Source of the DNA: Verrucomicrobiota bacterium
GTDB lineage: Bacteria; Verrucomicrobiota; Verrucomicrobiia; Verrucomicrobiales; DEV007
Direction of reading: 5' to 3'
NCBI GenBank assembly: GCA_045046875.1
Contig: JASFYY010000076.1
Coordinates: forward strand, 1-20,243
DNA: 20,243 nt
In this document: positions 6,979 to 19,900 of the stretch, piece by piece
Layout of the letters: every line of letters starts with the position of its first letter
Numbering within the stretch: position 1 is the first letter of the stretch
Made by a program: the position numbers and the translations under genes
Notes under the pieces: generated by a model
Told to the model about the DNA's origin: nothing
The model's database searches: none
The model's input: the letters and a program-made list of their open reading frames with translations, nothing else

Positions 6979-7410
6979 GTGGAAACACTCATTGAAACGG
7001 AAAGTTCTGATTCTGCGGAAACGGAGCCAGTTGAAAAAAACAACCCAAACGGGTTCACAGAGCCGATTACACCCGGTGAAGTGCCCTCGGCTGTGTTGAA
7101 AACGGCGCTCGAGAACGAGACGCCACGTCTTTTTGGTGTCTCTGCCCATGGAATAAGGGGGCGCACAGGCCCTGAAGAGGAAGCCGCGATTGGCCGCGAT
7201 CTGAATGCGATGAAAGAGGGCAGTGAGGCCATCGGGGAAGAGTTGGGTATGGAAACGATCGGATATGTGGTGATGTATGATGGCTATACTGCGATTGCTT
7301 ATCGCTACGACTCATCGTCTAGTCCCAGGGATCCGCATTTGATTGGGGCTATGGTGAATCGCCGTATGCCGATGCGGGAGTTGTTGAAAGTCATGGGTGA
7401 CGCTGTTTGA
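6979..7410 (+). CDS. Hypothetical protein, possible roadblock/LC7-like fold
   Basis: 143-aa ORF with GTG start; acidic disordered N-terminus, then helix-IGEELGM-beta-strand pattern. Confidence 0.65.
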   Translation: METLIETESSDSAETEPVEKNNPNGFTEPITPGEVPSAVLKTALENETPRLFGVSAHGIRGRTGPEEEAAIGRDLNAMKEGSEAIGEELGMETIGYVVMYDGYTAIAYRYDSSSSPRDPHLIGAMVNRRMPMRELLKVMGDAV

Positions 7411-7443
7411 GTGATGGGAAGCTAGCTTACAAATTTTTTTAGT

Positions 7444-8010
7444 ATGATTGATAATGGAGATAGTTCTGAAACCTTGGAGGTGCTGTTAGCCTCTGGAACT
7501 GTGAGGGGGACTTGTTTGTTGAAAAACGGCGAGGTTATTTATGAAAAATTCCCTTATTCAGCGGCGCGTTTGGTGAAAGTCTGCCGAGTGGTTGAGGGAC
7601 TGACCAAAGAATTCAAAGCACAGGGGCGTATGGTTGACCAAATGGCCTTTGGCTACGATGGTGGTAACTTGCTCGCGGTTACAGAGGGTAATTACAGGGT
7701 GATTTTCATGCACCTGATGAATGATGAGATTGATTTTCTTGCCAAGGCCGCCCGGGTTCTTCTGACAGATCTTATTGCTGCGGACAAACCTGCTAGAGAT
7801 GCGGTGTCACTCGATACGGTGCCAATTTCGCTGGTAAAAAACAATTTGGGATCTGATGTAAGGGTAGAAGATACCGCAAGAGTGGAGATCTTGACAGCCC
7901 CCCCCACAGAAGAGGCTCCAATAGCGGAAGCAGCGGGTGGATTGTCCCCGGAAAATATGTCGGTGGAGGATTTGGTTGGCTATTACTCTTCGCAAGACGC
8001 TGAAAAGTAA
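7444..8010 (+). CDS. Roadblock/LC7 (MglB-like) domain protein with acidic low-complexity tail
   Basis: VRGTCLLKNGEVI-helix-QMAFGYDGGNLLAV-RVIFMH-helix matches the roadblock secondary-structure order; co-oriented with 6979..7410. Confidence 0.65.
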   Translation: MIDNGDSSETLEVLLASGTVRGTCLLKNGEVIYEKFPYSAARLVKVCRVVEGLTKEFKAQGRMVDQMAFGYDGGNLLAVTEGNYRVIFMHLMNDEIDFLAKAARVLLTDLIAADKPARDAVSLDTVPISLVKNNLGSDVRVEDTARVEILTAPPTEEAPIAEAAGGLSPENMSVEDLVGYYSSQDAEK

Positions 8011-8694: not shown

Positions 8695-9567
8695 GTGATG
8701 CAGCAGGATAGGGCAAAACCAGAAGCTTGCCTGGCAATGGTGACGGCCTTGATGCCAGAGGCCAGACCCTTGATCGATCATTTTCGTCTACAGAAAATCA
8801 AAGGCCGCTCGCCCTTTCCTATTTTTCGCAGTGAAGACGGACGGCATTGTCTGGTGGTTTCGGGCATGGGAAAAATACTCAGTGCTTCGGCGACAACCAG
8901 TCTTTATCATGAAATGGGAGAGCTGCCCGGCATGGCTTGGTTGAATATTGGGATTGCGGGTCATCGTACACGTGAGCTGGGGGATTTGAGATGGGTGAAC
9001 AAAATCGAGGACGCGGCATCGGGGCAAAAATGGTATCCCCCTCGTTGGATCAAAACCGGCAGCAGGCAAGCGAGTGCGTTGTTAACCGTGGATCAGGCGG
9101 GAGAATACCCCGGAGGTGATACCCTGGTGGACATGGAGGCCAGTGGTTTTTATCAGATCGCCAGCCGCTTTTCGAGCAGGGAGTTGGTGCAGTGCGTGAA
9201 ACTGGTGTCTGATAATGCTGAAAATTCTTGGAAGGATTTAAAAAAGGGGCAGGTAGGGCTGTGGATCAGAGCGCAGCTTGATGATATCGTTGCGGGTTCC
9301 GAAGAGCTGTTGGTTTTGTCCGGGGACGAGATGAAACGTTGCCGGCTTCCCCGCGAAGCAGAGCAGATGTTGGATCTTTGGCATTTCACCCAAACGGAAA
9401 AACACCAGCTGTTTAAAATTCTGCGCCAACGCCAGGTATTGGCATCCGAGCAGGACAAGGCTGTATTATTTTGCCAGAACAATGGAGTCAGGTCGGCAAA
9501 GGAAATTTTGCCGCTTTTGCGGCAAGAATTAGCCGGCAAAGGGGATGAGTCCATTATGAAAATTTGA
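8695..9567 (+). CDS. Nucleoside phosphorylase-like (PNP/UDP/MTAN fold) protein with C-terminal extension
   Basis: TALMPEARP, SGMGK, LNIGIAG, VDMEASGF and KLVSDN motifs. Confidence 0.8.
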   Translation: MMQQDRAKPEACLAMVTALMPEARPLIDHFRLQKIKGRSPFPIFRSEDGRHCLVVSGMGKILSASATTSLYHEMGELPGMAWLNIGIAGHRTRELGDLRWVNKIEDAASGQKWYPPRWIKTGSRQASALLTVDQAGEYPGGDTLVDMEASGFYQIASRFSSRELVQCVKLVSDNAENSWKDLKKGQVGLWIRAQLDDIVAGSEELLVLSGDEMKRCRLPREAEQMLDLWHFTQTEKHQLFKILRQRQVLASEQDKAVLFCQNNGVRSAKEILPLLRQELAGKGDESIMKI

Positions 9568-9571
9568 GCGC

Positions 9572-10567
9572 GTGGATACTTTATACATTGAGCGGGAAAT
9601 TGTAACGCACGAGCGGGTGAGGGGACTGTGTGAGCGTTTTGCCAAGGCGGAGCGGATTATCTGTGATCGTTATGGTGAGGTGTTTAATGTGAAAGGGCAG
9701 AATTTTCGCTGGCAGAAACGCAAACCTTCCTGGATTTTGGCAGAGAAACATGGGCGGAGGGTTTTGCCAACTCCGCCAGCTTACGGAATTGGTTGTGAGA
9801 AAAATTTCTATTTTTCCCACATATTAAATTGCCCTTATGATTGCCGGTATTGTTTTTTACAAGGCATGTACAGTTCGGCTCACCAAGTGTGGTTTGTGAA
9901 TTACGAAAGCTTTCAACAAGCCATCGACGAGGTTTTGGCAGGATGCCCGGCGGAGGAAAAAGTGGGCTTCTTTTCGGGTTATGACGGGGATTCGCTGGCC
10001 TTGGAAAATATGACCGGTTTTGCTCAGAATTTTCTGCCTTTTTTCGAAAAACGTCCTCGGGCGATTCTTGAATTGAGAACTAAAAGTGTCAACGTGGGGG
10101 TGCTGCTCAAGCGTCCCGCGCTGGAGAATGTGGTGGTGGCTTTCAGTCTTTCTCCGCAGCAAATAGCGAGCGCTTTCGAGCATGGTGCGCCTACATTACA
10201 GCAACGATTGAAAGCGATGAAGAAGGTGGCGGAGCAAGGTTGGCCGATTGGCCTGAGGTTGGATCCTTTGATCGCCCAGCCAAATTTCACGGAGGAATAT
10301 GAAGCTTTGCTGACACAGGTTTTTAATGTGTTGCGCCCGGAGCAAGTGCACTCGGTGACCTTTGGCCCGATGCGCTTTCCCGAGGCGATGTTTGAGCGGA
10401 TGAGCTCACTCTATCCTGAAGAGCGTTTGTTTGCCGCAGGTTTTGAAAGACGGCAAGACGGTCTGTTGACTTACGCTCCGGAGCGGGAAAGGGAAATGCG
10501 TGATGCGTTGCGCCATTTGCTGAAAGAGCGCTTGCCTGACGAGAGGATTTTTGACTGTGCTGAGTGA
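9572..10567 (+). CDS. Spore photoproduct lyase (SplB)-like radical SAM protein
   Basis: CPYDCRYC cluster motif (9830-9853) followed by FLQGMY; ELRTKS, AFSLSP and RLDPLI motifs typical of the SPL family; starts 4 bp after the upstream gene. Confidence 0.85.
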   Translation: MDTLYIEREIVTHERVRGLCERFAKAERIICDRYGEVFNVKGQNFRWQKRKPSWILAEKHGRRVLPTPPAYGIGCEKNFYFSHILNCPYDCRYCFLQGMYSSAHQVWFVNYESFQQAIDEVLAGCPAEEKVGFFSGYDGDSLALENMTGFAQNFLPFFEKRPRAILELRTKSVNVGVLLKRPALENVVVAFSLSPQQIASAFEHGAPTLQQRLKAMKKVAEQGWPIGLRLDPLIAQPNFTEEYEALLTQVFNVLRPEQVHSVTFGPMRFPEAMFERMSSLYPEERLFAAGFERRQDGLLTYAPEREREMRDALRHLLKERLPDERIFDCAE

Positions 10568-10584: not shown

Positions 10585-13029
10585 TTATTTTTTAGGTATA
10601 TACCAGAGAGATTCCCAGTAGCGTTGGTCAAGTTGGTAGGGATCCACGTTTTCCTTTGTCAGATCAAAGGACTTGGGTAGAACACCGAAACGTTTCATTT
10701 CCCGGATATATTCCGGGCGAGGTTTGAAGTTTGGCATGTCAAAGCGTGTCACTTCATCAAGTTTGTCTTTTCCTGCACGTATCATGGCCAGTATAGCTTG
10801 GTAATCCGGGTCATTGTTATCTTTGAAAATTTCGACAGGTTTTTGGCTGCCATCTTTTGCAGTGCTTATGCAGGCACCTTCACCACCGGCAGCTTTGGAA
10901 AGTGGCCCGAGCAGGAGCAGCGATTGCTCGGGATGGCTCAGATTGTAGACAATATGGCGGGCGGTGTGCAACATCCGGTCATTGATGTCCATTCGCCAGA
11001 AACTGATGTTGCGTTCGTCTGACATGTTGTGGGGTAGGCGGAATTTTTCTGCGTGGCAAGAGGCGCAACGACGTTTTATAACTTCAGCTCCTTTTACGGA
11101 TGTTGGCCATTGTGAATCGTTGTTGACCAATTTGTTGGCTTGGTATCCGCCGATACTGCCGGTGCCAAGAGCAGCATAGGTTCCTGGGTAAACGGCTGCC
11201 GACTCGATCCAGTAGCGGATTTTTTTCACCTCGTTGGCAGAAAGTTGCGCACCATAGTGTTCGCCATTGAGTTTTTTCATCAGCGGGCTGGATGCCGCTC
11301 CGATCACGTAGGGATCATAGTTGGCATGGGGTCGGTTCCGCCCGTCGGCGAATTGTCCGTGAACAGTCAGAGTATAGTAGCTGTGGCTGAACATCGGTCC
11401 ACGGTCACCGGTGAGTAAAATTTTACCATCGCGTTTTGATGGCTTGTGACACTGGACGCAGTGTTTGTCGAGTATCGGTTGGATATCACGTGGGAAGTCA
11501 AACACATCAGGTATCCCTTCGATCTTGCGGATCACGCTTGGCGAGCGTTTTGCGGCGAGTGGAAGTGTTTTGGTGGGTGGCGACACTGTGGTGCGGTCTT
11601 CGTGACAACCGATGCAGCTGAGCATCTCGCCCGGCATGACGGAGGTGAAACTGTGCATGCGCTTGACGCTGTCTTCGTTTTTATCGAGTGCGATGAAAAA
11701 AACCGCGCGATTGGCGGGCACCTCGAAGAATGCCGAGCCGTCTTTCTCGACCGGCACGGTGCCGAGTAAGCGCTCTAGAGTGAACGATCCCCCATAGGTC
11801 AACGGGTCCATGCCTCCGGTATAGTTGATAGGTTTTGGCAAAGCCTCCATCACCAGTAGTTTTTTGATCGTGCCTTTTTTAACTGTTTCCATTTTTTGAC
11901 CGATATAGACATTGCTTAGCAGCATGGTGCCTGTCGCTTTTGACTCATCAGTTCGTTTTGGTAGCAATCTTTCCCGGCTGTGTTTTATAATCGGGCGGGG
12001 TTCATGGATATTCAGATTTTTCGAAAACATTGTTTCGGGAAGGTGAAATGCCGGATGTTCTGCACCGTCCCGGGTGATAGCGACAATCTCACGACCTCGT
12101 GCGGCTATAAAAACACTATGGCTAAGCGCATAAGGATCACGGTAACCATCTTCGGTTAGGTGTATTTTTGATTTTGGATCGTCCGGGCCGTTTTGGTTCG
12201 AGAGCAGAGTCACCTTACCTGAGTGTTCTTTTCTTCCATGTCCGGGTGAATCTATCAGGATCACTTCGTCGGAATCCGGAACGGGTTTGGCATCGATCAA
12301 TAAACCTCCCGGGTGTTTGTTGCCGTAATAAATTTTTTGCTCGGTGCCGTCGGGATTCATCGTCCACAAGTGGTGGAAATCCATCTGGCTGCGGTCGATG
12401 TATTCCCAGCGCTGGTACATAACACGGCCATCGGGTAAGACCCAGGGAGTATTGTCGTGTTCGAGATTGGGTGAAAGTTGCTGGATATGGTCCCCGTTGC
12501 CATCGCCACGGTGTATCGTGCCAACTTGTGTTGACCAACAGTTCACCCAGCGCTTGGCACGGGTAGAGACAAAAACAAGGCTGCCGTCCGGTTGGTAGGA
12601 TGCTTCATAATCATCGAAAGGCCCGGAGGTCAGTTGTTTGAGATGGGAGCCATCGGTATTAATTTCATAAAGATGAAAATTTTCGCTGTCACCTTTGCGG
12701 TATGAAAATAGGATCTTCTCACCATCGTAGTGGACGGCGGGGTCCCTGATCGTGCCTTTTGCATCGGCCACAAGTATGTCGATCTTTCCACTTTTGAGGT
12801 TCAAGATGCAAAGGTGACCGCCTTCCGAGTAAAGTTTAGACTCTTTGTCGTAGGAATAGTAGCCGATATTGGCATACCAGTGGCCGTCTTGAACCTGCCC
12901 TCTGCTGGCAAATACAATACGTTCGCAGTCCTGTGCGAGAATCAGATCACGACCCGTGTCGGTTTTTTCGCTGTATGCGAAAGTGTTTGCCAATAGCAGT
13001 AGGGGTAAAATGAATCGGGGTGCTTTCAT
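10585..13029 (-). CDS. HzsA-like (hydrazine synthase alpha-related) beta-propeller/c-type cytochrome protein with 3 CxxCH
   Basis: Start moved to the ATG at 13029 (MKAPRFILPLLLLANTFAYS signal peptide); the ORF-track extension overlaps the upstream gene. PD40/TolB-like blades, RWEYIDR, LWTMNPDG, LGTVPVEKDGSAFFEVPA; CIGCH 11602-11616, CVQCH 11446-11460, CASCH 11053-11067. Confidence 0.85.
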   Translation of the reverse strand: MKAPRFILPLLLLANTFAYSEKTDTGRDLILAQDCERIVFASRGQVQDGHWYANIGYYSYDKESKLYSEGGHLCILNLKSGKIDILVADAKGTIRDPAVHYDGEKILFSYRKGDSENFHLYEINTDGSHLKQLTSGPFDDYEASYQPDGSLVFVSTRAKRWVNCWSTQVGTIHRGDGNGDHIQQLSPNLEHDNTPWVLPDGRVMYQRWEYIDRSQMDFHHLWTMNPDGTEQKIYYGNKHPGGLLIDAKPVPDSDEVILIDSPGHGRKEHSGKVTLLSNQNGPDDPKSKIHLTEDGYRDPYALSHSVFIAARGREIVAITRDGAEHPAFHLPETMFSKNLNIHEPRPIIKHSRERLLPKRTDESKATGTMLLSNVYIGQKMETVKKGTIKKLLVMEALPKPINYTGGMDPLTYGGSFTLERLLGTVPVEKDGSAFFEVPANRAVFFIALDKNEDSVKRMHSFTSVMPGEMLSCIGCHEDRTTVSPPTKTLPLAAKRSPSVIRKIEGIPDVFDFPRDIQPILDKHCVQCHKPSKRDGKILLTGDRGPMFSHSYYTLTVHGQFADGRNRPHANYDPYVIGAASSPLMKKLNGEHYGAQLSANEVKKIRYWIESAAVYPGTYAALGTGSIGGYQANKLVNNDSQWPTSVKGAEVIKRRCASCHAEKFRLPHNMSDERNISFWRMDINDRMLHTARHIVYNLSHPEQSLLLLGPLSKAAGGEGACISTAKDGSQKPVEIFKDNNDPDYQAILAMIRAGKDKLDEVTRFDMPNFKPRPEYIREMKRFGVLPKSFDLTKENVDPYQLDQRYWESLWYIPKK

Positions 13030-13039
13030 AGTGCGTTTA

Positions 13040-15457
13040 TTATTCCAAAATAGGCATGACTTTCTTACCCAGGGCTTGTTTTTCGGTGTCGTGGTAGACC
13101 CCGTAAAAGAGAGAGCTGCAGTCCAGCCACAGCGTGATGTGGTGGAGCTCCTCGTCTGATAATTTAACTTCATAGTGCCCGTCCTCGAGCAGTTGCAACA
13201 GTCGCGAGGCACGGGCACCGACTTCGCCCGGAACAGAATAAGAGGTTTTGTTGCGCTCCAGTCCGGGGCCGTTGCCGCCGTATCTTGTCCATGCGAACGG
13301 GGTCAGGTTCTTGTAGGCGGTGGACCAACCGTATTTTTCAAAAGTGTCGCCTTTGAGGGAGAAGGTCTGGTTTTTTCCGTCATGGCAAGAGGTGCAGTTT
13401 TTGTTTATTACATGTTGAACCAAGCGTGGGAAGGTTAAGGGAAAGGAGCCTTCGACATCGGGTTTTATTTTGGAGGGAGCGCGTTGGAAAGCAATCGGAT
13501 TTTTAGTGTTGCGATAGGAAGCCGTGCGGGATTTTGATTCGTGGCAACCCACGCAACTCAGGCGTTCGCCTTCGTGCAAGTAGGTTGCCGACCTCATCGA
13601 CTGGATGGCGCGCCCCTTTTGGTCCAGTGCCTGGAAATACAATGGCACTCCGCTGGGAGCCTCGAAGTAGGCACTGCCGTCCTTTTCGACAGGAACGGTT
13701 CCAAGTACGCCTCGGCCGAGCGATTGTGTGCCGAAGCCGATGTTCGGCTCAGCCGAGGCGGGTGTTGTTTTCGGGAACAACTGAATAACGCGTAAGGCTG
13801 CGATGTCGGTGTTTTCGGGCCAATCTTGCTCGCTTTGGTAGACATCCATCACCGCAACTTCACCGCGTTTTTTTCCATTTTGGGTTGTTTTTCCTGGCAA
13901 TGCCGGCGGTTGTTTGCGTGCTCTTAGTGGAATGGGATCCAGGCAGGGCACCGAGGGATCGCGGTAAACCAGTTCGCGATTGCCGAAGCTGTCGATTAAG
14001 TATATGCCATAGTCACGACCTTTTCTGTCGTAGGTGCATAGGTAGTAGTTCTCGCTAAGTGGCCAGGGAGATCCTATTTGTTCAGACCCAGGCATAAATT
14101 TCTCCTTTGGTTTTCTAGGGATTCCGGGTGCGGTTTCTGCCTCAGGGAGGAATATATCCGGAGTGAGGCGTTTGACTTGGGACATGGCTTTGTTGTCAGG
14201 AACGGCGAGGTCAATCATTATCAGGGAGCCGTAAGCTTGCCCGTGGTGGGGTGCAGAGATTCCGCTGTACTTCTGTGAGCCGGGGATGGCTCGCAGGGAC
14301 AGCTCCATCCACGGACGGGATTCGCGCTTGATCGCATAGTTTCCGTGCAAGGCACGTGGATCCCTGCCATCCGGATAGGTAAGCCAGAGATGATGGGCGG
14401 AGTCCGAATCCCGATCCACATAGTCCCAGCGGGTGTAGACAATCATGCCGTTGTGATCCACGCTGGGGTGCCATTCATGGGTCTCATGGTGGCTAAGCCG
14501 CTGGATGTCAGCCCCGTTTTCCTTCATGCTATGCAAGGTGTAAACCGGATTCGGACGTGTGCCGCATCGCAGGAAACCGCCGCGTCGGTCGGAGATGAAA
14601 GCGATGCGTCCTCCGGGCAAATAACAGGGATCAAAATCGTTCCACTTTCCATCGCTGAGTTGGGTCAGATCGCTGCCGTCTATTTTCATTTTGAAAACAT
14701 GGTAGGTGCTTCGTTCGTTCCACAGATCCTCTTGCGGAGTGCGGGGGGTGGGTTGCACCGGAACCTCTGCTTCGGTCCAAGCAAATGCGATCTCGTCTGC
14801 ATTGTAGTTCAGATCCAGCGAGATGAACGAGCCAGCTGTTAGTTTGCGGCCTTTCAGGCGACCGTTCTGCACCAGTGCTCCGTCCATCAGATTCTGTGCT
14901 ACAGGTTTTTCTCCAAAGGGATCATTGAGGACATAAACTGATCCGCCCGGTGGAGCATGAAATCCATAGTACTGGTCGACCATGTGTTCGAAGCGCGCCC
15001 GGTGATGAGTCAGAAAAACGATTTTGTTAAAATCCAGTAAGGGGTTGGAGAAGGCAATGCGCCGCCTGAGTTTGCAAGCCGATAGGAACAGGTCCCGACG
15101 TTTCGGGTCGTTCTGCGCCAGTTGGTCATTTTTGTCGCCCAAGACGTTGAGCTCTTTCTGCAGAGCCTGCTTGTTTTCAAGTTCAAGATCATCAAGCAGC
15201 GCCGCAGTGCGGCGCAATACCACGTCAAGTGGGTTGCGGTCGGTTTCAAACAACAAGGCCGCCGACTGGAAGGTTTCCTGCTCCAGACGTTTTCTAACTG
15301 CGGCATCCGGCCTTGGTTGTTTCAGCTGATTGGACAGGTATTGCCATTCATCCAGCCAACTTTTACGGATCTCATCGTCTGCCTTGAGATTGCCGCAAAA
15401 AAAGATCAGAATGGGTAGCAGGACGGCGCCGGTGCGTATCAGATTCGAGGTTCTCAT
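13040..15457 (-). CDS. HzsA-like (hydrazine synthase alpha-related) beta-propeller/c-type cytochrome protein with 2 CxxCH
   Basis: Signal peptide; DFDPCYLPGGRIAFISDR, RWDYVDR, LGTVPVEKDGSAYFEAP and GERLSCVGCHE (13541-13555); CTSCH at 13382-13396. Confidence 0.85.
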   Translation of the reverse strand: MRTSNLIRTGAVLLPILIFFCGNLKADDEIRKSWLDEWQYLSNQLKQPRPDAAVRKRLEQETFQSAALLFETDRNPLDVVLRRTAALLDDLELENKQALQKELNVLGDKNDQLAQNDPKRRDLFLSACKLRRRIAFSNPLLDFNKIVFLTHHRARFEHMVDQYYGFHAPPGGSVYVLNDPFGEKPVAQNLMDGALVQNGRLKGRKLTAGSFISLDLNYNADEIAFAWTEAEVPVQPTPRTPQEDLWNERSTYHVFKMKIDGSDLTQLSDGKWNDFDPCYLPGGRIAFISDRRGGFLRCGTRPNPVYTLHSMKENGADIQRLSHHETHEWHPSVDHNGMIVYTRWDYVDRDSDSAHHLWLTYPDGRDPRALHGNYAIKRESRPWMELSLRAIPGSQKYSGISAPHHGQAYGSLIMIDLAVPDNKAMSQVKRLTPDIFLPEAETAPGIPRKPKEKFMPGSEQIGSPWPLSENYYLCTYDRKGRDYGIYLIDSFGNRELVYRDPSVPCLDPIPLRARKQPPALPGKTTQNGKKRGEVAVMDVYQSEQDWPENTDIAALRVIQLFPKTTPASAEPNIGFGTQSLGRGVLGTVPVEKDGSAYFEAPSGVPLYFQALDQKGRAIQSMRSATYLHEGERLSCVGCHESKSRTASYRNTKNPIAFQRAPSKIKPDVEGSFPLTFPRLVQHVINKNCTSCHDGKNQTFSLKGDTFEKYGWSTAYKNLTPFAWTRYGGNGPGLERNKTSYSVPGEVGARASRLLQLLEDGHYEVKLSDEELHHITLWLDCSSLFYGVYHDTEKQALGKKVMPILE

Positions 15458-15474
15458 AGGGGGGGATTTTGGGG

Positions 15475-16617
15475 CTAGGTTTTCTTGATCGCATCCACTT
15501 CCAGTTCGAATAGGAGGTCGTCGCGGCAGACGTCGTTCTGAACCAAACCAACTGGCATATCAGGCAGTTGGTGGGTTTCGCAATATTCGGTAAAACGGTC
15601 AAAGTCCTTCCGGCGTTTTACATAGGCCACACCACGAACCACATCATTCCAATCCATTCCCTGGGCGCTGAGGATTGCTTGAACCACTTCCATGGTGTAG
15701 GCGATCTGCGCTTCGATGTCGTCGATGTGAATGGTGGCTCCATCCGGGTCAATACTGGCGGTTCCGGATATGTATAAGCGTTTTATTCCGGGGGTCGCAA
15801 TCTCAACCGCTCGACTGAAGGAGCTTTCGTAATCGAGCGCCGGGCATTGCAGGGGAGAGGGAACTGCCCGGATGGTGGTCTGATCCGAAAGCGCTTCCAC
15901 CGCCAGGACACTGGCTTGAATAGCGGTGCCCATACTGTTGGCACCTCCAACCCCGGTGCTGGCGGGAACCATTTTTTTGAACACCTCACGGGGTTCAAAA
16001 AAACCAGTTCTTGCCTGGTTGAACTCGTCATACCAAGCAAGGATGTCATCCAGATACAGCCAGGTTCGCGCAACGTTGTCAAAGGACATGCGCATCCCTC
16101 TCAAGGCGTCTTCCATACGTTCGAACAGTTGATGGGTTTGTGCGCCTTTATTGAGGTGGGCTTCTGGATGGAGATTGTCCAATAATACATAACGTGCATG
16201 CTGATCCCTGAATTCATTGCCTACCAACTGCCCGCCGAGCCAGACCGGCTTCATCGCCCCCCCGGTGACGGCATGAACGTAAACCCCTGCCATTGGGCAC
16301 TTGTCCAACGAATCGGGCAAGGTGTGATTCAATCGGCATTCATTGCAGTTATAACAGTATCTTTGTTGTAGCCCCTCCGTTCCACGGGTGTTGACCTTAC
16401 CTAGAATATCCATGCGCAGGATGTTTGGTGAATCCAGCACTGCCAGCAACGCATCCAATCGTTCGAACATTTCTGCTGGGGATTCCCGGGGCATGGCCAG
16501 CCCGGTGAGGAAATGCTCCGTCACCTCACTGTGCTTGATGCTTGTGACGTAGCTACCCGTGGGCAGGTTAAGGGTGTTTTTTTCTAATAACATGGGGGTT
16601 TGCAGGCTTGTAGGCAT
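15475..16617 (-). CDS. Rid/YjgF-fold protein of the FkbO/Hyg5 chorismatase-like type (alternative start 16593)
   Basis: VARTWLYL, PASTGVG, FSRA, ISGTASI and DVCRDDLLFELE motifs; tandem YjgF-like repeats; no signal peptide; ATG 1 nt after the upstream stop. Confidence 0.75.
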   Translation of the reverse strand: MPTSLQTPMLLEKNTLNLPTGSYVTSIKHSEVTEHFLTGLAMPRESPAEMFERLDALLAVLDSPNILRMDILGKVNTRGTEGLQQRYCYNCNECRLNHTLPDSLDKCPMAGVYVHAVTGGAMKPVWLGGQLVGNEFRDQHARYVLLDNLHPEAHLNKGAQTHQLFERMEDALRGMRMSFDNVARTWLYLDDILAWYDEFNQARTGFFEPREVFKKMVPASTGVGGANSMGTAIQASVLAVEALSDQTTIRAVPSPLQCPALDYESSFSRAVEIATPGIKRLYISGTASIDPDGATIHIDDIEAQIAYTMEVVQAILSAQGMDWNDVVRGVAYVKRRKDFDRFTEYCETHQLPDMPVGLVQNDVCRDDLLFELEVDAIKKT

Positions 16618-16618
16618 T

Positions 16619-18490
16619 TTACAGAGACAGGACATATTCCACCAGGTCTTCGATCTCCTTGTCCTTCAGATTTTTGGTATAGCCGTGGTCGTCAGTTGGG
16701 TTGTGGTTCGTCACCACATCGCGGATCGTTCGTGAGCGCCCATCGTGAAGGTAGGGGGCGCTGCGCCATATTTCGACAAGGGTTGGCACATCGTATTTGG
16801 TATCGATCTCTCGTCCGGTGCCCGTTCCCACATCGTAGAGTTTCAGGTCGGTGAAATAGTTTCCGGCGTGGCATTTGCTGCATTTGGCTTTCTTGAAAAC
16901 AGCCTTTCCGCGTAAGGCTGACTTCGATAGTTTGTTATTAACCAGATGTGGGCTTGGGACGGGCTTCATGGATTTGAGGAAGGAGTCGATTGCCACGGCA
17001 TCCGATTCCGGCAGCACGGCCATAAAAAAACGAATGCCGGCTCGCACCGATGTTTCCGCGTTGGCGCGACAACCGGTGACCGTGGTTGGCGGAGTTTTGT
17101 GCGACAGTAACAGGCTTTTGGTGTTTTTCGGATTTCCAATGCCGTCATTAAGAATGTCCCAATTCAGGGCGTCGACACGTTCGCTGGGGTGGCAACTGGT
17201 GCAGCTCTGCCACTGCTGAAAACAGAAGGATCCGTCATTAAATAGGAAACGACCGCGTCTAACCACATTCATTTCTTGAGTCGGGCCGAGTGAATAGGAG
17301 GAAACAACAGGGAAGTCGGGTTCGGTCAAATCCACGACCGCGATATCGTCGGTGAAAAACTGGGCTGCATACAAGCGGGACCCTGCGATGACACAAGAGC
17401 GTGGACCCAAGCCCGGCAATTTCACCCGTTTGCGCATGCCGACGAGGAAGCTGAGATCGTTGGGAACCTGATCGCCTGCTGCTGCCAGTTTTGTGTGTAG
17501 GGCTGCCCGGTCGATCAGGCTGATCTCATGACTGCCTGCGTGTGTGCTAGCCAGCGTTTTGCCATCGGGTGTGATGGCGATACCCCAGGGGTTGGGAGCG
17601 CCCAGATCAATGTCGTCGAGGAGAAAGGTGTTGAGTAAGGCCATTTTTTCAAGGTCGATCACGCTGATGGCATTAGTGTTCACCCAACCACGTTCGATCT
17701 GGGTGGTTGGCAATTGGTAGCGGGCAAGCACATGGCCGAGGTAGGCGTATTTGCCATCGGGTGATAGACAGATATCACGCAAACCATTGCTACCATTGGG
17801 CAGTGCGAGTTCAGTAATGGTTTGGTTTGTTTTGGTATCGATGACAGAGATCGCTGCTGCCACATAGTCGCTGTTCGCCGTGCCTGCCGGGAGGTGATTC
17901 ACTACTAGGAGCTGGGCGCCGTCGGAGGTCAATACAGCAGAAACTGGTTCGCGCTTGACCGCAACGCGGACACGCGTTTTTCCTGATGCCGTGTCGATGA
18001 CCGAGACATCGTTGTTGAAACGATTGCAGATATATAGAGTTTTTCCATCTGCACTGACCACTGGCGCTGTCGGACTGTGACCAGCTTTATAGGTAGCTAT
18101 TGTTTTGCCTGACTGGGTGTCGAATACAAGCACCCGGCCGTTGCTGACTCCGGCTGTAATGTAAAGTTTTTTTTCATCCGGAGACAAAGCAAGTCCGCTA
18201 GGCTCCGATTTGATCGCAAGGCGCTTGATCAGCTTGCCGTTTGTGGCGTTCAGTTCCGCTACGCTGCCTGCTGTGGTTTCTGTTACAAACAGCCGTTTCC
18301 CATTTTTCGTGGCGATGATGTGCGATGGCGACCGGTATCCTGTTTCTGCCTGTCCTGCGGGCGGAGACAGGATGAACGCCATTCCCAGTATGAAAGCGGC
18401 GATTCTTGCACAGGAAGCCACCTGTGGATGTAGCGGGGATATCAAATTATTCGGGGGGGACAAGGGGTGGGGGGCAACACCGGGAAACAT
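16619..18490 (-). CDS. YVTN/YncE beta-propeller fused to a di-heme cytochrome c peroxidase-like domain (HzsB/HzsC-like architecture); true start may be at 18445 or 18421
   Basis: Signal-like segment ending AGQA; repeated blades such as PSGLALSPDEKKLYI and DGKTLYICN...VSVIDT; CTSCH (17189-17203), CSKCH (16868-16882) and VPTLVEIWRSAPYLHDG CCP-type motif. Confidence 0.85.
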   Translation of the reverse strand: MFPGVAPHPLSPPNNLISPLHPQVASCARIAAFILGMAFILSPPAGQAETGYRSPSHIIATKNGKRLFVTETTAGSVAELNATNGKLIKRLAIKSEPSGLALSPDEKKLYITAGVSNGRVLVFDTQSGKTIATYKAGHSPTAPVVSADGKTLYICNRFNNDVSVIDTASGKTRVRVAVKREPVSAVLTSDGAQLLVVNHLPAGTANSDYVAAAISVIDTKTNQTITELALPNGSNGLRDICLSPDGKYAYLGHVLARYQLPTTQIERGWVNTNAISVIDLEKMALLNTFLLDDIDLGAPNPWGIAITPDGKTLASTHAGSHEISLIDRAALHTKLAAAGDQVPNDLSFLVGMRKRVKLPGLGPRSCVIAGSRLYAAQFFTDDIAVVDLTEPDFPVVSSYSLGPTQEMNVVRRGRFLFNDGSFCFQQWQSCTSCHPSERVDALNWDILNDGIGNPKNTKSLLLSHKTPPTTVTGCRANAETSVRAGIRFFMAVLPESDAVAIDSFLKSMKPVPSPHLVNNKLSKSALRGKAVFKKAKCSKCHAGNYFTDLKLYDVGTGTGREIDTKYDVPTLVEIWRSAPYLHDGRSRTIRDVVTNHNPTDDHGYTKNLKDKEIEDLVEYVLSL

Positions 18491-18553: not shown

Positions 18554-18793
18554 TCACAATTTATGCGGATTATTGGACTGGTTATGCGGATGACCGGCCA
18601 GGTAAACGTATCTATGAAATTTATCCTGTGACATCGCACCGGATAATGATCTTGCCTGAGATCGGGTGGTAAGAAAGTGCTTCGCCCAGTGACCGGAAGG
18701 ATCCAGTTCAAGCACTGCTATCAAATCATCCAAAGCTTCGATCAGAGAGGAGATTTGTTCCTGCCGATACTCCATTGTGATGGGGTTGTTCAT
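18554..18793 (-). CDS. Small hypothetical protein, probably a truncated cassette-derived gene
   Basis: Protein-like amphipathic N-terminal half (LIEALDDLIAVLELDPSGHWAKHF); the C-terminus looks degenerate; lies right after an attC remnant. Confidence 0.4.
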   Translation of the reverse strand: MNNPITMEYRQEQISSLIEALDDLIAVLELDPSGHWAKHFLTTRSQARSLSGAMSQDKFHRYVYLAGHPHNQSNNPHKL

Positions 18794-19189: not shown

Positions 19190-19195
19190 ACCTTC

Positions 19196-19321
19196 ACCGA
19201 ACGTCGAGCTCACCCAGCACTGAGCAGGGAGCGAGCGTGAACGAAGAGGTTAGTGTTTAAAGTCATGTTGGTTTTTAACATCGGGGCAGCTCAGTGCTTG
19301 GTGAGCAGCGTTTTGTTTTCT
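19196..19321 (-). mobile_element. attC: Integron attC recombination site (126 bp)
   Basis: Minus strand R'' AGAAAAC ... GCTCACCAAGCACTGAGC / GCTCAGTGCTGGGTGAGC (17/18 paired) ... TCGAC-R' GTTCGGT; begins 6 nt after the toxin stop codon. Confidence 0.85.
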
Positions 19322-19327
19322 GCTTAG

Positions 19328-19645
19328 TTATAAATCCATCGAATACCTCAGAGCTTCCTTCACTGCCTTAAACGATTTGCCATGAATTGTCCCAATCGGG
19401 CCATTCAATTCATGATGCTGAATTGCCTGAAGACCTTGAACATTCGCGTAACTCTTCATCCGAAAAAATGGTAGGGAAGGTAGCTCTACTTCGTAAAGCG
19501 ATTCGCGGCATGATGAAGTAATTGGGACACATATAGACAGAGCCCGAGGAGAATCGCAATCTTCGCGTGATACGACCAACATCATTCGGACTTTGCCGCT
19601 CGCACCGAGATCAACTCGATAGACTTCACCTGGTTTAGTCGTCAT
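19328..19645 (-). CDS. mazF: Type II toxin, PemK/MazF family endoribonuclease
   Basis: KPGEVYRVDL..GKVRMMLVVS...CVPITS...KSYANVQGL...IGTI; overlaps the antitoxin by 11 bp. Confidence 0.85.
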   Translation of the reverse strand: MTTKPGEVYRVDLGASGKVRMMLVVSREDCDSPRALSICVPITSSCRESLYEVELPSLPFFRMKSYANVQGLQAIQHHELNGPIGTIHGKSFKAVKEALRYSMDL

Positions 19646-19865
19646 ATAGCGAATCTAAAGCACTTTGTCTCATCGAACTTGTGACCAAGAGATCATCATT
19701 CTGATCTGGAAGCCCTACACTAAAAGGAAGCCCTCGTTGGAGTTTTACCTGAGAGAGAAACATGCGAATCGCATCGGTAGTAGATATACCGAGCTCTGAA
19801 AAAATCCTGTCAGTCTCGTCTTTTAATTCAGGGTCTACCCTCGCCCTTACAGTTGCATCATTCAT
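19635..19865 (-). CDS. Type II antitoxin, RelB/DinJ family (RHH)
   Basis: MNDATVRARVDPELK...FSELGISTTDAIRMFLSQV..QRGLPF; start placed at ATG 19865 because the TTG extension runs through the promoter. Confidence 0.88.
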   Translation of the reverse strand: MNDATVRARVDPELKDETDRIFSELGISTTDAIRMFLSQVKLQRGLPFSVGLPDQNDDLLVTSSMRQSALDSLYDD

Positions 19866-19871
19866 GGCGCA

Positions 19872-19900
19872 ATTATGACACAAATGTGCTACAGCGGCAA
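19872..19900 (-). promoter_or_regulatory. Sigma70 promoter of the TA cassette with an internal operator-like palindrome
   Basis: TTGCCG-17 nt-CATAAT, 6 nt before the ATG; CACA-tt-TGTG palindrome in the spacer. Confidence 0.7.

Follow-up and report, generated by a model that had tools for sequence, protein, structure and literature searches.

A hydrazine-synthase-like haem operon with two alpha-like subunits and a Hyg5-type chorismatase-like gene in a Verrucomicrobiota bacterium

A four-gene operon from a Verrucomicrobiota bacterium (GenBank assembly GCA_045046875.1) is a variant of a described family of hydrazine-synthase-like haem gene clusters, with two alpha-like subunits and a Hyg5-type chorismatase, and, judged by its residues, is not itself a hydrazine synthase (HZS). 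It lies on contig JASFYY010000076.1 (C76) of a 5.6-Mb genome that is 94.7% complete; the window analysed here is this whole contig, 20,243 nucleotides (nt) long. The origin of HZS is an open question, and its many relatives outside anammox bacteria have no reaction assigned in the papers that we found. The steady pairing of HZS-like haem genes with a chorismatase is a clue to the role of this family, and the Hyg5-type chorismatase, conserved and with its key residues kept, offers a first concrete way to approach its function; the present operon packs the arrangement into four genes, among them one for a fused beta–gamma protein (BC) and two for differing alpha subunits. An open reading frame (ORF) map shows four intact, co-oriented genes, transcribed in this order (lengths in amino acids, aa):

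16619..18421, minus strand: BC, an HzsB/HzsC-like fusion with a signal peptide, a seven-bladed propeller and a di-haem domain (phmmer, AlphaFold2, NCBIfam)
15475..16593, minus strand: Hyg5-type chorismatase-like protein with a Rid fold, 372 aa, without a signal peptide (profile matches, site residues)
13040..15457, minus strand: A1, HzsA-like, 805 aa, with a signal peptide, an N-terminal extension, a propeller region and an HZS_alpha middle domain (PF18582, 5C2V_A)
10585..13029, minus strand: A2, a second HzsA-like protein, 814 aa (PF18582, 5C2V_A)

An earlier note on this DNA, made from the letters alone, had described four co-oriented genes, three with signal peptides, carrying seven CxxCH motifs and separated by gaps of 1, 17 and 10 nt. 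The genes and motifs were confirmed at that place (two motifs in BC, none in the chorismatase-like protein, two in A1 and three in A2; seven in sum), as were the gaps of 17 and 10 nt. A gap of 1 nt after BC would require ATG 16617 as the start codon of the second gene. In its close homologues and in the database protein, all of 372 aa, the start corresponds to the ATG at 16593, which gives a gap of 25 nt. BC probably starts at the GTG at 18421, matching a 600-aa database entry. Export was called from a hydropathy scan, which is no signal-peptide predictor, on N-terminal hydrophobic stretches with best 10-residue means of 2.73 in BC, 3.11 in A1 and 2.30 in A2 (0.79 in the chorismatase-like protein, which has none); the same scan detected no later membrane segment in BC, A1 or A2. 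Ratios of non-synonymous to synonymous substitution (dN/dS) against the orthologues in genome G001 were 0.05–0.09, with dS near saturation, and all four genes are under purifying selection. A 7,320-nt contig from run X1 is colinear with 11128–18447 with 211 differences and no gaps; that strain diverges from about 18447, and a 79-aa ORF lies upstream of BC at 18554–18793 (minus strand). Promoter and terminator scans of the operon stayed at chance level (6 against 7.1 and 13 against 11.1).

The suggestion that this was an undescribed system was not borne out by the literature. Suarez et al. (2023; PMC10732223) described co-located genes for HzsA-like and fused HzsBC-like proteins outside anammox bacteria and proposed a wider family with other substrates, while Hagglund et al. 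(2025; PMC12758564) assigned co-located alpha-like and fused beta–gamma-like genes to four clades and rejected an anammox function; anammox genes in those hosts could not be confirmed (PMC11266412). The present operon likewise pairs PF18582 alpha-like genes with a fused beta–gamma-like gene, carries canonical CxxCH motifs and has lost key HZS residues. It fits the description of clade IV in PMC12758564 by its two-haem BC and by the lack of FG-GAP or ABC genes nearby. The residue analysis in that text covers clades I–III only, with Trp at gamma-144 and, in clade I, Cys165; the BC of this operon has neither. In contrast to the account given there, this host has haem-copper oxidase genes. A chorismatase link, a pattern of one BC to many A proteins and an A–BC fusion are all absent from the examined text of PMC12758564 and PMC10732223; RidA, chorismat and L-PSP go unmentioned in the main text of the former, with mention in its supplementary tables possible. 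Our wider literature search, mostly without subscription papers, returned no chorismatase link and no experiment on HZS-like clusters, which agrees with the earlier note on their lack of functional characterisation.

The HZS ancestry proposed earlier was upheld. The chains of Kuenenia stuttgartiensis HZS (5C2V) are the closest solved relatives of the three exported proteins, and the profile check asked for in the note placed PF18582 above its cut-off in both A proteins and CCP_MauG (PF03150) above its cut-off in BC. BC matched 5C2V_B and 5C2V_C in phmmer searches (E 3.5e-32 and 1.5e-24), and its AlphaFold2 model was confident (predicted local distance difference test score 91.3, predicted template modelling score 0.93). 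The propeller of this model superposes on 5C2V_B with Z 45.5 and a root-mean-square deviation of 2.1 over 338 residues, about 10 Z units above the next folds (Z 34–35.5), and the 5C2V beta chain was the closest fold in all three fold searches (Foldseek E 7.8e-29); the lists held propellers alone, as the propeller filled them, and have no bearing on the CCP fold. BC also has the inter-subunit insertion of HZS blade 6, which is nearly invariant and can be aligned with no gap. A1 and A2, 29% identical to each other, are HzsA-like in the fold predicted from their sequences: PF18582 (HZS_alpha) scored 73.8 bits in A1 and 75.5 bits in A2, and 5C2V_A was the sole PDB match of each (A1, E 5.2e-10, profile E 5.5e-21; A2, E 1.7e-9). 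Their CxxCH codons lie at 13555 and 13396 in A1 and at 11616, 11460 and 11067 in A2, whose three-haem form recurs in 80 of 96 long homologues.

Set against Kuenenia HZS (5C2V/5C2W), the operon shares the three modules, the blade-6 insertion, a His at the gamma-II distal position and two gamma-like and two alpha-like haem motifs at matching places, but differs in its fused beta–gamma protein, its two alpha-like genes (one with a third haem), its extra conserved cysteines, its internal chorismatase gene and its heterotrophic host. The residues to which PMC12758564 and PMC12607021 ascribe roles in HZS have largely gone. The position of alpha-Tyr591, the haem alpha-I ligand, holds Ser in A1 and Thr in A2, and a Tyr four residues past the first alpha haem His occurs in only four of 250 homologues; gamma-Cys165 (third thioether) and gamma-Asp168 (haem gamma-I) fall in a 12-residue gap relative to 5C2V_C; gamma-His144 is replaced by Val, and beta-Glu253 by Gln although the blade-6 insertion is present. 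Scores in the NCBIfam equivalog models were 72.9 and 49.5 against a cut-off of 800, 154 against 1250 (NF052342, BC), 123 against 560 and 81 against 625, and no HZS model exceeded its cut-off elsewhere in the genome. Because alpha-Tyr591, gamma-Cys165, gamma-Asp168 and beta-Glu253 are missing and the scores fall far below the cut-offs, the operon, on these predictions, is not a hydrazine synthase, and hzs-like matches in metagenomes need not mean anammox.

The host, as the earlier note had supposed, appears to be no anammox organism: its relatives are Verrucomicrobiota (at two loci relatives at 80% identity are Verrucomicrobia), and no octahaem gene of HDH level was found in the 94.7% complete genome. 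That note had also remarked that the window held no octahaem gene, which is correct for the window; elsewhere in the genome, however, contig C55 carries an octahaem gene of the HAO fold, which scores 71 against a cut-off of 900 for HDH and has 4QO5 as its closest solved relative. It lies at L056:4329-9340 with genes for a DsrP/NrfD-type membrane protein and a tetrahaem cytochrome. Four haem-copper superfamily genes and cytochrome c assembly genes are present as well.

In its haem domain, with CxxCH codons at 17203 and 16882, BC resembles the CCP/MauG/MbnH superfamily in its di-haem fold motifs, a PTL...APY.HDG-type signature and a PF03150 score above cut-off, but differs from it in a fused propeller, a compact domain and altered haem surroundings. 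The gamma-144 position, taken in CCP and MauG by the inter-haem Trp, is Val in BC and Trp in two of 129 alignment rows; Trp is present there in all four clade-I-type proteins, which have ten haems and fall in a separate group from BC in a FastTree phylogeny. In database searches, the 55% matches of BC are named Sedimentisphaerales. In 125 of the 129 rows a His occupies the place of the distal His of HZS, so that haem 2, by sequence only, is probably bis-His. An invariant Trp stands three residues ahead of the haem-1 motif and an extra Cys, conserved in 125 of 129 rows (codon 17224), seven residues ahead of it; this Cys might substitute for gamma-Cys165. Free cysteines also occur in the A propeller loop (A1 codon 14566, in 120 of 120 A1-like rows; A2 codon 12540, in 119 of 121 A2-like rows), and these, with the Cys before BC haem 1, are candidate haem ligands or attachment sites.

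The second gene is the most informative of the operon. The earlier label was 'Rid/FkbO-like'; the residues are of the Hyg5 type instead, although the profile matched FkbO (4BPS, E 1.1e-21) and Hyg5 (5AG3, E 4.2e-21) ahead of all others. Gly214, Gly277, Cys356 and Glu363 align with Gly173, Gly240, Cys327 and Glu334 of Hyg5, unlike FkbO, which has Ala at the second and third selectivity positions. Across 124 alignment rows Gly277, Cys356 and Glu363 never vary and Gly214 is kept in 122; of 42 locus homologues of full length, 39 retain the complete set of 13 site residues. Gly, Gly and Cys are the selectivity residues of CH-Hyg5 enzymes, which also have a catalytic Glu (PMC7170507) and produce 3-hydroxybenzoate (PMC4685789). 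Because the three Hyg5-type signature residues and the catalytic Glu are present, the 372-aa protein is likely to make 3-hydroxybenzoate from chorismate. Its likeness to CH-Hyg5 chorismatases (EC 4.1.3.45; 5AG3, 5A3K) extends to aligned Arg, Tyr, Phe and Arg; it differs in a Ser for Ala in the PAATG-like motif and in having no polyketide or ligase genes nearby. Two points weigh against the assignment: the TIGR04444 score of 65.5 bits misses its cut-off of 325 widely, and identity to characterised chorismatases is only 20–30%. A plain RidA deaminase was rejected, because the 372-aa protein has a multi-domain fold and, among solved structures, is most closely related to FkbO and Hyg5. The host carries chorismate synthase and, on contig C20 (L058:3967-4911), a second chorismatase-like gene (TIGR04444 158 bits) with Ala at the first selectivity position. 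A role in a quinone pathway has no local support, because a genome search gave no member of the futalosine family PF02621 and placed all five UbiA-family genes on contigs other than that of the operon.

The pairing of these genes extends well beyond this host. Among 301 genomes of the phylum, with at most 16 A and four BC candidates counted per genome, BC occurred in 63, A in 60 and both in 58, bearing out the expected co-occurrence, and chorismatase in 117; the genomes are related, so that counts are not independent, and many assemblies are fragmented. Chorismatase was present in 62 of the 63 BC genomes, against 55 of 238 without BC, and lay within 400 nt of BC in 40 (39 downstream) and within 10 kb in 45. 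A matches (at least 272) far outnumber BC loci (at least 74), A exceeding BC in 38 of the 58 genomes, at least threefold in 26, and reaching at least 16 copies in seven. Within the host family, a BC match below E 1e-100 was found in two of 36 other genomes, both of the same genus and with differing flanks, a patchiness that suggests lateral gain or repeated loss. More broadly, at least 5,629 BC, 3,893 A1 and 3,333 chorismatase clusters exceeded thresholds among about 8,000 candidates scored, and 4,867 representatives at 50% identity match A2 at E ≤ 1e-10. Chorismatase also heads ten-haem, FG-GAP-containing operons of the distant clade-I type (L106, L121, L125, L159) and adjoins DAHP synthase in four loci (L051, L052, L066, L157). 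In L066 (9461-14751) and L157, the order is DAHP synthase, BC, chorismatase, a small ResB-like gene and CcsA, with no A gene in the stretch.

A paralogues bear lectin-like, FGE-like and PKD domains, and in L076 (1497-10832) a single 3,111-aa ORF joins passenger repeats, an A domain, FGE-like and PKD domains and a BC domain. The host itself has a third HzsA-like gene on contig C15 (L033:8687-12118), encoding 1,143 aa with a C-terminal FGE-sulfatase-like domain, with no BC in the 20 kb around it. In G001, a third A gene is inserted in reverse between A1 and A2 (L024:4314-6830), and in G005 the A2 orthologue is split over two ORFs (L025:6139-8610). In L053 (6496-15040) and L077 (4907-13091), BC is followed by a 1,040–1,065-aa di-haem propeller protein, an FGE-like protein and chorismatase; the propeller proteins have no HZS_alpha and no detectable likeness to HzsA.

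We tentatively favour, as possible though short of probable, a model in which exported BC, A1 and A2 form HZS-shaped periplasmic haem-c complexes that would not make hydrazine and would act outside the nitrogen cycle. That a complex forms is probable, because of the A–BC fusion in L076 and the kept inter-subunit loop, so that the earlier proposal of a periplasmic haem complex gains support. Since a single BC goes with many A paralogues, whose binding domains vary, A would set the substrate and BC would be the shared partner: BC haem 2 would pass electrons in or out and haem 1 relay them, and A1, A2 and the C15 paralogue would be interchangeable catalytic subunits, each acting at the first haem above its propeller. 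Their substrate would be organic, most likely a compound that the cell encounters when it forages for glycans. In the cytoplasm, the chorismatase would convert chorismate to 3-hydroxybenzoate, which would cross the inner membrane and serve the complex as cofactor, redox mediator or a precursor of these. A small diffusible product used in the periplasm is the simplest link because the chorismatase is cytoplasmic whereas most of the proteins encoded repeatedly beside it are exported, and because ligases, prenyltransferases and hydroxylases do not recur there. Among 450 co-oriented ORFs from 121 chorismatase loci, the families found in at least three loci were exported proteins, ABC ATPases, hydrolases, an oxidoreductase and one Pfam-less family; no ligase, prenyltransferase or hydroxylase family reached three loci, under a filter that drops ORFs hidden under longer overlapping frames. 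The chemistry need not depend on respiration, because 47 of the 63 BC genomes had no haem-copper oxidase/NO reductase match, though this host has four such genes. On balance, the chorismatase product is probably coupled in function to the complex; its use as cofactor or mediator in redox chemistry on an organic substrate is a narrower guess that could well be wrong.

Several observations count against this model. Chorismatase also occurs without BC or A (in the 55 of 238 genomes mentioned above, and with neither partner set in seven of 26 well-flanked loci) and beside unrelated exported systems (DUF1549/1553–DUF1501–PPC; imelysin–DHOR–FecCD), so that its product may have a more general use; in hosts of this kind, genes for glycan enzymes would lie nearby by chance alone; and we know of no enzyme that uses 3-hydroxybenzoate as a cofactor. 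The 80 metagenome loci chosen by chorismatase include BC or A in 26 and the PPC protein of a DUF1549/1553–DUF1501–PPC operon in 14; in the 26 with 2.5 kb on both sides, BC/A was present in 15, PPC in six, either in 19 and neither in seven, with duplicates likely (L081/L082 and L084/L085). More speculatively still, a very large family of periplasmic haem enzymes, the stock that gave rise to HZS, may depend on a new chorismate-derived cofactor or mediator (3-hydroxybenzoate or a derivative), one chorismatase and a shared BC supplying it to many A proteins, and DUF1549/DUF1553–DUF1501 systems may share the molecule.

Among the alternatives, BC could be a MauG-like maturase with many A proteins as its clients: it would oxidise 3-hydroxybenzoate, or a compound derived from it, and couple the product to their invariant propeller Cys, yielding a protein-bound quinone-like cofactor. 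The large number of A paralogues per single BC and single chorismatase, the CCP/MauG ancestry of BC, the invariant Trp before its haem-1 motif and the free Cys of nearly all A1-like and A2-like rows would all suit such an enzyme. We nevertheless regard it as unlikely: the CCP/MauG relay Trp is Val in BC and kept in two of 129 rows, MauG needs Tyr at the haem 2 distal position where 125 of 129 rows have His, a haem-copper oxidase match is missing from 47 of 63 carriers, and the A–BC fusion suggests a stable complex.

Also unlikely is a complex handling nitric oxide (NO), hydroxylamine or nitrite, in detoxification or an N–N or N–O step, with the Rid-fold protein supplying an aromatic acceptor or clearing reactive intermediates. 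For each of the three exported proteins, to be sure, no solved structure is closer than HZS, and the host has the HAO-fold octahaem gene and four haem-copper superfamily genes. The NO, hydroxylamine or N–N chemistry put forward in the earlier note is nonetheless disfavoured because the HZS residues tied to it are absent, gamma-Asp168 and gamma-Cys165 lying in the 12-residue deletion and the alpha haem Tyr being found in four of 250 homologues and not in A1 or A2. Moreover, at least 16 divergent A paralogues are hard to square with one inorganic substrate, no nitrogen-cycle gene recurs beside chorismatase in the 121 loci, and the octahaem gene lies on another contig.

Iron or metal acquisition, with 3-hydroxybenzoate leading to a chelator or reductant made or recycled by the haem complex, would accord with chorismatase lying between imelysin, DHOR and FecCD/periplasmic binding genes in L036 and L078 and with the ABC substrate-binding genes of clade III clusters (PMC12758564). 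It is improbable, as that arrangement occurs in two of the 121 loci, both of one genus, no uptake gene lies near the operon or its G001 and G005 orthologues, and seven haems would be a costly way to gain iron. Equally improbable is biosynthetic tailoring, in which the complex would oxidise or couple 3-hydroxybenzoate into a secreted metabolite or signal: characterised Hyg5-type enzymes do feed natural-product pathways (PMC7170507) and DAHP synthase neighbours suggest added flux, but no ligase, carrier protein, synthase or exporter recurs in the 121 loci, and the great expansion of A, with its varied binding domains, points to a range of substrates more than to a single product. A true HZS of an unrecognised anammox organism, for which the full alpha, beta and gamma parts list and the HAO-fold gene might speak, can be virtually dismissed, given NCBIfam scores of 50–154 against cut-offs of 560–1250, absent catalytic residues, an octahaem protein scoring 71 against 900 for HDH and closest to 4QO5, and Verrucomicrobia as relatives at 80% identity.

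The other chorismatase contexts form arrangements of their own. A DUF1549/DUF1553, DUF1501, PPC-domain and Hyg5-type chorismatase operon recurs (L037, L044, L045, L081, L124, L156 and others), flanked in L081 by three HzsA-like genes; our literature search found no paper linking it with chorismatase. In L036 (2652-10330) and L078 (3451-11159), the order is imelysin, three-haem DHOR, Hyg5-type chorismatase, FecCD and binding protein, which resembles iron uptake. A quick-method chorismatase tree of 43 rows, with the L026 fragment dropped, mixed BC-linked and DUF1501-linked copies in both main groups, and because long branches meet we draw no order of events from it.

Around the operon, 8695–10567 (plus strand) encodes a nucleosidase-like protein and a radical SAM protein of the spore-photoproduct-lyase family. 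Their genes are separated by 4 nt and run towards the operon, ending 17 nt from the A2 stop; this pair was not seen beside the operon in G001 or G005. Two small co-oriented proteins encoded at 6979–8010 (plus strand), with no Pfam match and no real NCBIfam match, are presumably akin to roadblock-type proteins. On the other side, a RelB-type antitoxin gene is followed by a PemK/MazF-type toxin gene at 19328–19883 (minus strand), and at about 19190–19500 two runs show very high depth together with loose ends, which would suit a repeat or a mobile element.

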